DNA of 64,000 nt from Eledone cirrhosa (lineage: Eukaryota): contig OZ024744.1 in the NCBI GenBank assembly GCA_964016885.1, positions 88,908,001-88,972,000 on the forward strand. The letters are read 5' to 3'. Positions 28,840 through 60,769 of the stretch are shown one piece after another. A model generated the notes under the pieces. The model was not told where the DNA came from. It saw nothing but the letters and a program-made list of their open reading frames with translations, and did no database searches. Positions within the stretch are counted from its first letter, which is position 1. The number at the start of each line of letters is the position of its first letter. Position numbers and translations under genes: made by a program.

Positions 28840-29272
28840 ACCAAAGATTAATATGGTTCGTTGATTATTCAACGAATACAATTTTACAATAGATTAGAAG
28901 CACTCGACAGTAACAATTTTTCCTGGAGTATTTAATATTATTCAAAATATTAATAAATGAAAAATATTCTTATAATCAAAATATATATTTTATTATATAT
29001 ATTTCAAAGGTACAATGGTGGTTAAGTACGTTTTCATCAGCTAAAATATAAGATTTAATATACGACATACCGCTACGGTTTTGATTATTCAATTCCAATA
29101 GTGGCAGTATTGGAATTAAATAATCAAAACCGTAGCGGTATGTCGTATATCAAATCTTATATTTTATCTGATGAAAACGTACTTAAACACCATTGTACCT
29201 TTGAAATACGTATAATAAAATATATATTTTGGTTATGAGAATATTTCTCATTTAAAAATATTGTGAATAATA
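28840..29272. mobile_element. Fold-back pLTR pair (family C) with HHR at 29160-29222 (+) and its mirror at ~28986-29049 (-)
   Basis: Arms meet at a 7-nt loop (29101-29107); tail on the left arm; same family as the ends of 30901-35325. Confidence 0.85.
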
Positions 29273-29610
29273 TATATATGTATATATATATATATATATA
29301 TTTTACGCATATAAATTCATGATCAGAAAGTTACTACTCTTCTAAATAACATTTAAATATTTTAATATATTTGACACCTTGTTATTTTGGCCACCTATTT
29401 AATTAGATAAGTGATTTAAAATATATTTTGTTCTGGAATGATCTGTATGTTGATCGTTTTTTTTAATAAACGCTGATGATTCCTCTGGTCTGTGCTAACT
29501 AATAACAAGTTGTTCAATAAAATAACTTGCTATTAGAGGTACATTCCTTTGGGAAAAACAATTGTTTGTAATTAAATGTCTTAAACTTTTAATTTGGTTT
29601 TTGTAAGCAC

Positions 29611-29709
<99 letters not shown>

Positions 29710-29756
29710 ATAAGGGCGCTGCGGAGTTGCAAATGGGTTACATATGAAAAAAGTTT

Positions 29757-29825
29757 GTCCTTCATCAGTGATCTTCCAACCATCATAGGCATTTCATCGC
29801 TTTAAAGACCATATACCTCCGGTTG
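29757..29825 (-). ncRNA. Candidate non-circularly permuted hammerhead ribozyme (copy 1)
   Basis: aggta-TA-tggtcttt-aaagcgat-GAAA-tgcct-atgatggttg-gaagatca-CTGATGA-aggac; helix III aggta/tgcct, helix I tggtcttt/gaagatca; no conventional helix II. Confidence 0.55.
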
Positions 29826-30372
29826 GTGCGAGCAACGGCTAAAAAAAGACGTTGGGACACGTAAATAAAGGGGACGCGAGGGTAAACAAACAAAATGGTG
29901 AAGCAACAGAAAGTGAGGAAGAAAGAGACAAGTCCCAGATTTCTATGAATTTAAATTCGGTGAAATCGTGAACAAGAGAATAAAGACCATCAAACCTGGT
30001 TGAAATGTGAGCAAGGAAGGAATTTCGCACAGGTTTAACGGGAGGAAGAAGGGGTCTGGTCTGCGAATTCGGTAAACATAAGTTCTGTGAAATCGTAGAC
30101 GAGAGAGAGACAAAACTCATACCAGCTTGGCCAGCGTGCGGGAGAAAAGAATTACACACAGGTCAAACGGGAAGAAAGAGGAGGATGAGAGGTAGTGACA
30201 GAGAATGAGTGAGTGAAGGGTGAGGAAGAGGCTAACAGAGAGAGAGAGACTGCTAGAAAGGGTAAAGATACATAGAACGAAAAAGACATGTAGCAGCAGA
30301 GGAAAAAATATGTGTAAATATGAAAATAAGGGCGCTGCGGAGTTGCAAATGGGTTATATAGGAAAAAAGTTT

Positions 30373-30441
30373 GTCCTTCATCAGTGATCTTCCAACCATC
30401 ATAGGCATTTCCTCGCTTTAAAGACCATATACCTCCGGTTG
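30373..30441 (-). ncRNA. Candidate non-circularly permuted hammerhead ribozyme (copy 2)
   Basis: Same as copy 1 except gcgag before GAAA; agga/tcct hairpin after CTGATGA. Confidence 0.55.
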
Positions 30442-30522
30442 GTGCGAGCAACGGCTAAAAAAAGACGTTGGGACACTAAATAAAGGGGACGCGAGGGTAA
30501 ACAAACAAAATGGTGAAGCAAC

Positions 30523-30605
<83 letters not shown>

Positions 30606-30659
30606 TGCTTACAAACCAAAGTTAAACGTTTAATGTATATATATAATTCGTTTTTTTTA

Positions 30660-40527: not shown

Positions 40528-41107
<580 letters not shown>

Positions 41108-42251: not shown

Positions 42252-42284
<33 letters not shown>

Positions 42285-42367
42285 CAAAAAGTTATGATGC
42301 GAAAGGAGCTGTGTGGTTACTAAAAACCAGGTTTAGCATGGTGGTTAGGGCGGAACAGGAGGAGAAA

Positions 42368-42436
42368 GGAATTTCCATCGTCTGCTGTAAATGTATCCCG
42401 AACCGATGTTTCGGCGCTGAATTACAGGACATCGGT
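42368..42436 (-). ncRNA. Permuted hammerhead-like motif with core mutation (CAGACGA)
   Basis: Mirror of 43021-43089 with helices I and III intact. Confidence 0.45.
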
Positions 42437-43020
42437 GTAGTTAATCAGAAGGCCAGTGGAAAAGAGAGAGAAAGAGAGAAAAAAAGGAGAGAGAAAAGGA
42501 AAGAGAGGGAAAGGAGGAAGAACAGGGGAGGGGGGAGATGAGGAGAGAGGAAGAAGGGGAAAATAGGAAAGGAATAGAAGAAAAAAAGTGTACAGATCCC
42601 ATCGTGGGAAGACACAGGTGAAAGAAACATGCAAAAAAGTAACCGTGGTAAAATAGGGAAAGTAAGTTGTGGCCTACCTGGGAGACTTTAGCCTGGTGGT
42701 CAGCTACGACTCAGAGCTGGTATGATCGTGCTGCCTCTTGCATAGACAGGAGAAAGTGAGAGTGAGAGAGAGACACGGGCAACCAAAAGTGAGGAGGAGA
42801 AGGGAAAAGGAGATAATCCAGAAGGGTTTTTTTACGACGGTTGTAAAATCGTACGGCAAAGATTGCGGACAGAGAGGCCAGCACGGCACATGTACTCTCT
42901 CCTCATCTTTTCCCCCCTGTTCTTCCTCCTTTCCCTCTCTTTCTTTTTTTTTCTCTCTTTCTCTCTCCTTTTCCACTTGGCCTTTTGATTAAAAAAAAGC
43001 CTCGGGCGCACCCGAACTAC

Positions 43021-43089
43021 ACCGATGTCCTGTAATTCAGTGCCGAAACATCGGTTCGGGATACATTTACAGCTGACGATGGAAATTCC
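43021..43089 (+). ncRNA. Candidate non-circularly permuted hammerhead ribozyme
   Basis: accgatg-TC-ctgtaa-ttcagtgcc-GAAA-catcggt-tcgggatacat-ttacag-CTGACGA-t-ggaaattcc; 7-bp helix III plus A-U, GUC site, 6-bp helix I, 2-bp helix II. Confidence 0.62.
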
Positions 43090-43699
43090 TTTCTCCTCCT
43101 GTTCCATCCTAAAAACCATCCTAAACCCTATATATACGTTAACGAGGCTATCGGAATCAAAATCTGTATACCCCTGGCCACTCCAATTACGTACTTAATA
43201 AGACCTAAGATTTAAATGTGGGAACACATAAATCTGCAACCTATATATATATATGGGGGAAGGGTGGTAACTTAATCTGTCAACATTTTATCAATATTAC
43301 ATGACAATTGGATACATTTAACAGAGACCAAACTTTTGTAAGCATTCGGGTTAGATTTCCGGTTTTAAGGAAACTTTCGTCTCCCGCTTCCTCGGGATCG
43401 ACAAATGAAATAGCAACACGTGGTCATGCATTGGCCGAATTGTTAGGACGATGAATAGGATGATTTGGTGTACCTGTTCCGGCTCATTGATTTCTGAGTT
43501 TAAATTATGCCTAGAGGTTCATATCTCAATGGATTACCATGACTAATCCCTCGATAACAGAATCACATATAATTAGGAAGTTGCATTGAGTGTGGATGTG
43601 GATGACAATTGGGGGTCATCTGTACAGCAGTAGAACAATTATCATGAGAACGTGGATACGATACTAACCCACAAACGTCATCAGCACATTATTACGAAC

Positions 43700-59213: not shown

Positions 59214-59511
59214 CACACTCACACACACACATACACACACACACACACACAGACACACACACACGTACCAATCAGTATAGAAACAAATAAATATGTATAT
59301 AAGTATGTATACGTACATACATATATGTATACAGACGTACAGTAGTATGTATATATATATATACATACATGCACACATATATATATATGTACGTATGGAT
59401 TCACCGAACATTTATTATAATGCTCGGTGTGTTTGTAAACAAACATCCCGAATTAAGTCGTACAGTGTCTAGCAACCATCGTTGCTCATTTGTTCAACAC
59501 TGACAAAGGAA

Positions 59512-59552
59512 CGCTGTACTAGTTTCAAGCTTATTAGCTATCGTCAGCAACG
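59512..59552 (-). ncRNA. Minimal type I hammerhead (array copy 1)
   Basis: cgttg-CTGACGA-t-agct-aata-agct-t-GAAA-ctag-TA-cagcg; GUA site; palindromic ACTAGT helix III. Confidence 0.88.
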
Positions 59553-59940
59553 TATACCTTCCTGCCATATGGTTGAGCGTCTGAAAGTATATACTCTCCT
59601 TATGCATATTAACGGCTGAGCAGTCCAATTTGCATATTGAGTGAGTTAATCGGCCGGAGCACCGAAAACTATAAACGGAAAAAGTGAAACGAAATTTCAT
59701 TTCTCACTCTTAGTACGGCTGTTACTTAAATATAAGTATGTACACGTACATACATATATGTATACAGACGTACAGTAGTATGTATATATATATACATACA
59801 TGCACACATATATATATGTACGTATGGATTCACCGAACATTTATTATAATGCTCGGTGTGTTTGTAAACAAACATCCCGAATTAAGCCGTACAGTGTCTA
59901 GCAACCATCGTTGCTCATTTGTTCAACACTGACAAAGGAA

Positions 59941-59981
59941 CGCTGTACTAGTTTCAAGCTTATTAGCTATCGTCAGCAACG
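59941..59981 (-). ncRNA. Minimal type I hammerhead (array copy 2)
   Basis: Identical to copy 1. Confidence 0.88.
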
Positions 59982-60362
59982 TATACTTTCCTGCCAGATG
60001 GTTGAACGTCTGAAAGTATATACTTTCTTTATGCATATTAACGGCTGAGCAGCCCAATTTGCATATCGAGTGAGTTCAGTCGGCCGGGGTACCTAAAACG
60101 ATAAACGGAAAAAGTGAAACGAAATTTCATTTCTCACTCTTAGTACGGCTGTTACTTAAATATAAGTATGTATACGTCCATACATATATGTATACATACG
60201 TACAGTAGTATGTATATATATATACATACATATATATATGTACGTATGGATTCACCGAACATTTATTATAATGCTCGGTGTGTTTGTAAACAAACATCCC
60301 GAATTAAGCCATACAGTGTCTAGCAACCATCGTTGCTCATTTGTTCAACACTGACAAAGGAA

Positions 60363-60403
60363 CGCTGTACTAGTTTCAAGCTTATTAGCTATCGTCAGCA
60401 ACG
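60363..60403 (-). ncRNA. Minimal type I hammerhead (array copy 3)
   Basis: Identical to copy 1. Confidence 0.88.
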
Positions 60404-60769
60404 TATACTTTCCTGCCAGATGGTTGAACGTCTGAAAGTATATACTTTCTTTATGCATATTAACGGCTGAGCAGCCCAATTTGCATATCGAGTGAGTTAA
60501 TCGGCCGGGGTACCTAAAACGATAAACGGAAAAAGTGAAACGAAATTTCATTTCTCACTCTTAGTACGGCTGTTACTTAAATATAAGTATGTATACGTAC
60601 ATACATATATGTATACAGACGTACAGTAGTATGTATATATATATACATATATATGTATATGTACGTATGGATTCACCGAACATTTATTATAATGCTTGGT
60701 GTGTTTGTAAACAAACATCCCGGCTGATTAACTCACTCGATATGCAAAAAAAACTTTGTATCTCATATA

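Follow-up and report, generated by a model that had tools for sequence, protein, structure and literature searches.

A tandem 616-nt repeat between two (TA)n runs

The window analyzed here, a 64,000-nt stretch of Eledone cirrhosa DNA (assembly GCA_964016885.1, contig OZ024744.1, positions 88,908,001 to 88,972,000), contains an 821-nt minus-strand insertion of a repeat family that we call family A, bordered on both sides by (TA)n runs. The features of the insertion, in window coordinates, are as follows.

29705 to 30525, minus strand: family A insertion (subfamily A1), 1.3 tandem units of a 616-nt non-coding repeat, 5'-truncated at 30525 and with its 3' end fixed at 29705
29613 to 29705, strand not applicable: (TA)n target on the 3' side of the insertion
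30525 to 30601, strand not applicable: (TA)n target on the 5' side of the insertion
29812 to 30427, minus strand: 616-nt cut-to-cut monomer, the predicted cleavage product and putative circle
30372 to 30475, minus strand: putative ribozyme module, copy 1, with a private U-to-G change at position 11.1 (30412) and a private change in the tail
29756 to 29859, minus strand: putative ribozyme module, copy 2, in agreement with the family majority
29811 to 29812 (copy 1, 30428|30427), minus strand: predicted scissile bond after A17 of an AUA triplet, by analogy with the hammerhead core
29762 to 29768 (copy 1, 30378 to 30384), minus strand: CUGAUGA core strand (C3–A9)
29792 to 29795 (copy 1, 30408 to 30411), minus strand: GAAA core strand (G12–A15.1)

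Outside both (TA)n runs, the segments 29573–29612 and 30601–30640 are short inverted arms of one another, which places the element within the loop of a foldback repeat older than itself.

The host genome, 3.0 Gb in size and rich in microsatellites, yielded 1762 first-look candidates with a query from the family A 3' end, and the 40 that were scored are 99–100% identical. The copy number is put at well over a thousand, and scaling up the six full motifs seen in 1 Mb gives thousands. At 30 loci, the 3' end is constant at the (TA)n junction and the 5' ends are scattered, and several of these loci hold inverted partial copies or non-coding head-to-tail arrays of the 616-nt unit, which support the retrozyme-like tandem unit proposed in an earlier, sequence-only reading of the window. 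The longest arrays reach 1714 nt (2.8 units), and the units of the sister subfamilies A2 and A3 measure ~530 nt and ~625 nt, respectively. Two 3' ends are in use, 67 and 107 nt behind the predicted cut and thus 40 nt apart, in a manner that fits the 30–40-nt tail of Penelope-like elements (PLEs) tied to two RT start sites in the accessible text of PMC11167929 and PMC8557442.

The A1 unit, also checked as a dimer, contains no ATG-initiated ORF longer than 93 amino acids, and no ORF bearing the Naiad marks (an N-terminal GIY-YIG domain, a CxC motif and a DKA-type RT) is present within the family A element. A type I (CGS) hammerhead is likewise absent from the element: the canonical arrangement with GAAA downstream of CUGAUGA, which the sequence-only reading had named as the finding that would speak against it, was looked for there and does not occur. 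The fixed 3' end with a 30–40-nt tail, the variable 5' truncation, the tandem and inverted copies and the microsatellite target are those of a non-autonomous PLE, and a ribozyme motif in every non-coding tandem unit is the mark of a non-LTR retrozyme. Family A is a young non-coding tandem element with Penelope-like ends. The similarity between A1 and A2 is confined to positions –53 to +86 around the cut, which is the module region, and this points to selection on the module.

Block order and fold of the module

The CUGAUGA strands lie at 30384–30378 and 29768–29762, 616 nt apart on the minus strand as previously claimed, with GAAA 23 nt upstream of CUGAUGA in both copies and the UA cut sites at 30428|30427 and 29812|29811. 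The full hammerhead core is present, comprising C3–A9 (CUGAnGA), G12–A15.1 (GAAA) and U16.1–H17. In each unit the blocks follow the order cut site, GAAA, CUGAUGA (S-G-C), a non-circular permutation of the hammerhead. With thresholds of at least 5 bp for stem I and at least 4 bp for stem III, scanning the 64-kb window on both strands returned three S-G-C matches, namely the two family A copies and one at 43029 belonging to a second family (family B). The pattern search suggested by the sequence-only reading was run on a genome sample of 100 stretches of 10 kb (1 Mb), of which 200 kb lie beside the window and 800 kb are spaced over five chromosomes. It gave six S-G-C matches, all of family A (four beside the window and two over the five chromosomes), versus 0, 0 and 0 in three local shuffles, and the five other block orders gave no match in the same sample. 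The S-G-C order is therefore not a product of chance and the non-circular permutation is supported, with the proviso that the family A copies are akin to each other and the shuffle counts are not probabilities. Over 111 family A copies, the cut triplet ends in UA (81) or UC (30) and never in G. No Rfam model reached its gathering score in seven loci that included both families, and for the window itself the 150 Rfam matches listed of 337 comprise only microsatellite-driven miRNA, which was discarded as an identity.

The family B module was located as follows.

42970 to 43085, plus strand: family B (43-kb) module, same architecture as family A with unrelated sequence; G10.1–C11.1 from the upstream strand; predicted cut 43029|43030

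Only one 17-nt match is common to families A and B, in agreement with the earlier statement that they share the order and not the sequence. An inverted, partly damaged copy of family B lies at about 42284–42935, and the insertion as a whole (42284–43131) has a typical PLE layout, in which a 5'-truncated inverted copy is joined to a short forward copy. The genome holds 844 first-look candidates of family B, which are 89–94% identical, making it older than family A.

Ordinary minimal type I hammerhead-like motifs of several families, often as inverted pairs, occur at 18275, 6218, 29040–29168, 31010, 34632, 22821–22907 and 40740–40868, so that circular and non-circular orders coexist in one window. 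Two further repeats were observed. A tandem array at 59297–60722 contains 3.3 copies of a 422-nt unit, 96% alike, with a CUGACGA per unit on the minus strand, and is possibly retrozyme-like. A 1.9-kb inverted repeat at 13862–18096, 100% complementary with a 426-nt spacer, is either a recent foldback insertion or an assembly feature.

The helices of the family A fold model, given for copy 2 on the minus strand, are as follows.

29769 to 29811: helix I, pseudoknotted (29811–29805 with 29775–29769); both-side changes in 3 of 7 pairs among subfamilies
29787 to 29818: helix III (29818–29813 with 29792–29787)
29776 to 29826: stem I/II interaction helix (29826–29821 with 29781–29776); both-side changes in 3 of 6 pairs, seen in a single old subfamily copy
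29797 to 29831: helix II via the upstream strand, a pseudoknot (29831–29828 with 29800–29797); four pairs, invariant
29761 with 29796: likely helix II cap, the lone pair 10.1–11.1; four pair types
29833 to 29854: hairpin V (29854–29847 with 29840–29833), one mismatch; both-side changes in two pairs when A1 is compared with A2
29756 to 29859: helix IV, closing the module (29859–29855 with 29760–29756)

The strands of the model follow one another in the order IVa, hairpin V, IIa, interaction helix, IIIa-UH-Ia, IIb-GAAA-IIIb, interaction helix, Ib-CUGAnGA and IVb. Helix I (8 bp including two G-U pairs) and helix III (5 bp plus A15.1–U16.1) are found at both copies just as the sequence-only reading had them. 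The 6–7-bp extension that it assigned to helix III does pair, but its counterpart is the stem I/II interaction helix of type-SGC hammerheads. Its view that helix II is missing gives way to a model in which the bases before GAAA pair with a strand that precedes the cut-site block and the bases after the core close helix IV with a strand still further 5', hairpin V lying between these two strands. The local gga..tcc hairpin offered as a substitute for helix II was also dropped, since it depends on a private mutation of window copy 1, found in one of 42 aligned copies. In family A, it is likely that the upstream strand completes helix II, with the extra helices IV and V sitting at the A9/10.1 junction.

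The model was compared with 16 natural family A copies, chosen by hand from 59 distinct motif sequences so as to span the subfamilies. In these copies, 92.7% of 592 cells are paired, and both partners have changed in 10 of 37 pairs; neither value was reached by any of 500 shuffles, and slid controls pair in 27–46% of cells. Covariation between subfamilies resides in helix I and hairpin V, and helix III varies on one side within family A and differs fully between families. The four helix II pairs of family A never vary and are thus uninformative. Positions 10.1 (after A9) and 11.1 (before G12) pair in 14 of 16 rows, as U-A, C-G, U-G or A-U, the C-G type being accompanied by a one-base deletion that shifts helix IV in those rows. 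This pair is lost from copy 1 in the main register, and the canonical position of helix II, directly after CUGAnGA, holds 0–1 bp in family A. In nested folding, the centroids of copy 2 and A2 contain helix IV, hairpin V, the interaction helix and helix III, and an old copy yields the same set except helix III; for copy 1 and A3 the predicted folds fail to reproduce the model, and the folding z-scores of the module range from –0.6 to –1.5. A parser for the general module scored A1 at P = 0.115 and gave no parse for A2. The fit to the general module is less clean for family A than for family B, and two helix II registers compete in the former.

Predicted hammerhead modules behind Naiad-type RT genes

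Naiads have been reported to lack a canonical hammerhead, and the accessible part of PMC8557442 flags 10 'HHR_core' and 8 'HHR_half_core' cases in which the motif is left unfolded. In the consensus file of that work (Craig et al.), the inspection took in every one of the 62 CTGATGA matches and, for three other core spellings with 23, 25 and 43 matches, the first 14. Within this selection, visual reading showed the module at the 3' ends of Naiad_Obim, Naiad_Ovul, three Acropora Naiads and several more, some such ends being among the flagged cases, and a plain type CSG with a 5-bp helix II was recognized in Naiad-2_Nbra, Naiad-3_Nbra and their neighbours. In the arthropod section of the supplement, some Naiad ends appear by eye to carry CUGAnGA inside a hairpin in G-S-C order, an unclassified variant (PMC8557442).

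Decayed Naiad RTs of the host genome led to full-length proteins with an N-terminal GIY-YIG domain and from these to 111 Naiad-type loci on metagenome and MAG contigs. Five of the 111 were excluded for short RT matches, and 85 of the remaining 106 have at least 300 nt downstream. A block-order scan of the sense strand of these 85 loci gave 11 SGC and 5 CSG motifs (one of the five without a canonical helix II), whereas the antisense strand gave none, the mean of 20 shuffles was at most 0.05, and no circular block order was found behind the 85 RT genes. A relaxed parser found the full module in 13 of the 85, distributed over 8 RT clusters at 60% identity. The proposal that such motifs could explain a PLE clade described as lacking canonical hammerheads is supported by 13 SGC and 5 CSG motifs behind 85 Naiad-type RT genes. 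The pair G10.1–C11.1, which the parser does not impose, is present in all 13 module-bearing loci; in 12 of them the canonical stem II has at most 1 bp, and in 12 the module score was matched by none of 200 shuffles. Furthermore, in the five closest tails helix II pairs with the upstream strand in 30 of 30 cells, with five of six pairs changing on both sides, as compared with 4 of 30 cells for the canonical partner, and helix II is the most variable part of these tails. In family B and the Naiad tails, G10.1 itself comes from the upstream strand; in family A, the 10.1–11.1 pair is likely still formed by the base after A9. In the remaining 67 loci no motif was found and CUGAnGA of any kind occurs in six; since 20 of the 67 have 1500 nt downstream (some others are short), the motif is not universal in this RT group.

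Among these loci, L395, L441, L469 and L470 carry, 3' of the RT, a plain type-CSG hammerhead with a canonical helix II of 5–10 bp, and their RTs form one branch. Type CSG had until now come from two metagenomic sequences. The Naiad-type RT genes at L461–L491 are on contigs filed under bacterial or archaeal MAGs, probably through eukaryotic contamination of the bins.

The Naiad remnants of the host genome branch with five module-bearing loci at an SH-aLRT of 99, in a quick tree whose remnant rows are partly filled. An S-G-C motif lies behind the RT of one remnant, at a distance of about 0.8 kb. The old family behind a Naiad RT remnant (family C; L153:690-900, minus strand; G000:C5:27610648-27610858) has 253 first-look candidates. 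Its blocks are in S-G-C order and its tail pairs with the strand before helix I; its peripheral helices differ from those of the module and there is no clear helix II.

The search for a mobilizing partner gave no family A copy joined to an RT. The autonomous PLE with the family A terminus that the sequence-only reading had envisaged did not turn up in a search that scored 150 out of 236 candidates, nor did an intact Naiad, and family A had no match in the Naiad loci examined. The strongest matches to Naiad RTs that the host genome yielded are decayed, and of two RT motif patterns run on the genome one gave a single decayed copy and the other none; neither a word-indexed protein search nor the viral contigs yielded an autonomous partner. 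The genome is rich in GIY-YIG elements that belong to other PLE clades and have long ORFs, and young PLEs of these clades could be the helpers of family A. The top GIY-YIG matches were rejected as partner, being PLEs with a C-terminal endonuclease and no SGC motif in 30 loci, and a 17-nt motif from a published octopus Naiad end matched unrelated repeats only. The PLEs at L092, L093 and L104 (C-terminal endonuclease, ORFs up to 938 amino acids) have no CUGAnGA in the 650 nt behind the GIY-YIG domain, and L109 has a core variant of the U3-A8 type.

Family A and the Naiads, as far as the latter are described in the accessible part of PMC8557442, are alike in their (TA)n targets, tandem and inverted 5'-truncated copies, 30–40-nt tail and module at the 3' end. 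They differ in that family A codes for no protein and has no sequence in common with the Naiad loci examined. The link between the two is one of shared RNA architecture only.

Proposed cleavage cycle and relation to known hammerheads

On the fold model, we consider it quite probable that the module self-cleaves, yielding monomers and perhaps circles from tandem transcripts, and that a PLE protein, probably of a Naiad, copies these into (TA)n. The catalytic core would fold like any hammerhead and cut after A17, and read-through transcripts of tandem units would be cut into 616-nt monomers, with ligation to circles as a possible further step. A Penelope-like RT-endonuclease acting in trans, most likely of the Naiad clade, would nick (TA)n; reverse transcription would begin 67 or 107 nt behind the cut, at an internal site that is fixed, and continue for a variable length, at times past one unit. 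Type-SGC hammerheads cleave in vitro according to the accessible text of PMC10085705, and the PK hammerhead, in which a lone G10.1–C11.1 pair is continued by a pseudoknot helix, is described in that of PMC11300833 as a fast ribozyme with a solved structure. The predicted release of a 616-nt monomer or circle is plausible. In 40 copies picked by downstream identity alone, 3 of the 5' ends lie within 5 nt of the cut (one exactly) and 5 lie at –72/–73, another TA-rich spot; in a larger set, 3 of 119 segments start near the predicted cut. The cut site is preceded by TATA, matching the target, and A2 shows no 5'-end clusters in contigs. The 5' ends thus form no convincing cluster at the cut and are a weak hint of cleavage at best.

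Helix II of family A may lie in another register, in which 29836–29832 pair with the five bases before GAAA and hairpin V is partly open, or the two registers may alternate as an on/off switch. This register, which is the choice of the parser, gives a purine-pyrimidine 10.1–11.1 pair in A1, A2 and A3 (G-U, A-U and G-C, respectively), draws G10.1 from the same strand as in family B and the Naiads and pairs 90.4% of cells, with 8 of 32 pairs changing on both sides. However, the main register pairs more cells (92.7%), and two compensatory pairs of hairpin V are broken by the shift, which in addition fails in the old subfamily copy that retains the lone pair and requires linkers exceeding the 0–1 nt typical of the 13 Naiad loci; we regard it as unlikely. 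That short motifs came together by chance in repeat-rich DNA, or that the assembly is at fault, is hardly conceivable: although CUGAnGA occurs 43 times in the window, shuffles and antisense controls gave no match, family A and the Naiad tails both show covariation, and all bins of A2 are covered by contigs from three public runs of one sample. A chance origin of the motif itself, as distinct from its function, is already refuted.

Alternatively, the RNA might be cut only as a dimer, in which the CUGAUGA strand joins the S-G hairpin of the next unit, or with the RT-endonuclease as chaperone, so that monomers and circles stay uncut. For minimal PLE hammerheads, which cleave poorly on their own, a mode of action as dimers has been proposed (PMC4209133); in the accessible text of PMC11167929 the Anolis PLE hammerhead required its protein, and the cut site is spanned by many insertions. 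Yet one 104-nt module can close all helices, family A has no palindromic stem III, and type-SGC ribozymes are described as cleaving in cis (PMC10085705, accessible text), and we regard a dependence on a dimer or a protein as rather unlikely. More improbable, in our assessment, is a fold that no longer cuts in family A and has been retained from an ancestral ribozyme as a protein recognition or priming signal. The module is indeed all that A1 and A2 have in common, its place is immediately before the RT start sites, its 10.1/11.1 pair deviates from G-C in both, and hammerhead mutants left insertion of the Anolis PLE in vitro unaffected (PMC11167929, accessible text); against this, every catalytic nucleotide is kept across unrelated families, and the cut triplet is UA or UC in all 111 copies.

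Returning to the cleaving module, we consider it somewhat probable that its topology, new to the papers searched, is the ribozyme of many Naiads, with plain type-CSG in others, and that in this genome it drives high-copy circular-RNA retrozymes missed by searches for types I–III. This topology would combine a non-circular permutation with a core opened between A9 and G10.1, giving four core strands and six helices, and family A, with its strand swap one pair further out, would occupy an intermediate position. The proposal bears on the open question of why the Naiad clade seemed to lack the hammerhead of other PLEs. If it holds, non-circularly permuted hammerheads would pass from anonymous environmental RNA to animal genomes at high copy, and CUGAnGA and its helix II strand would no longer be one unbreakable block, with consequences for search descriptors, hammerhead structure and ribozyme design. 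A retrozyme survey that relies on type I descriptors would have overlooked the whole class. Our search of the open-licence PMC and bioRxiv literature brought up no account of SGC or CSG hammerheads in retroelements, nor of a core opened between A9 and G10.1.

The SGC block order itself was published by Eckert et al. (2023) for HRIMA-1 and its variants, in the accessible text from metatranscriptomes only and from no genome of a known organism, and the accessible part of the supplement has no entry for Octopus, Metazoa, Eukaryota, Acropora or Mollusca (PMC10085705). Type-SGC, as described there, and family A share the S-G-C order, the full core, a short linker between helices I and II and an interaction helix joining the far ends of these helices. 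The two differ in helix II: in type-SGC its strand follows CUGAnGA directly, and the authors treat the two as a block that cannot be broken, whereas in the family A model the bases after CUGAnGA form helix IV and helix II comes from the upstream strand beside hairpin V. An intact block C is accordingly found neither in family A nor in the five closest Naiad tails.

Non-LTR animal retrozymes resemble family A in their non-coding tandem units with one hammerhead each, in a GC content below 45% and in being non-autonomous relatives of PLEs, as far as the accessible texts describe them (PMC7229834; Li et al. 2026, 10.64898/2026.07.22.740005). By comparison, retrozymes are defined and searched by type I hammerheads in circular order and typically measure 300 nt, whereas the family A unit is of SGC order and longer, and its circle is putative. 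The PK hammerhead (Zhan et al. 2024, PMC11300833, accessible text) also replaces helix II by a lone 10.1–11.1 pair and a pseudoknot with a distant strand; its connectivity is Pistol-like with a continuous A9–G12 strand, whereas in family A this strand is broken and the block order is non-circular. The PLE hammerheads proposed to act as dimers likewise sit at PLE ends and can leave the first position of helix II unpaired, but they are of circular order with a weak or absent helix III, as compared with the stable helix III of family A.
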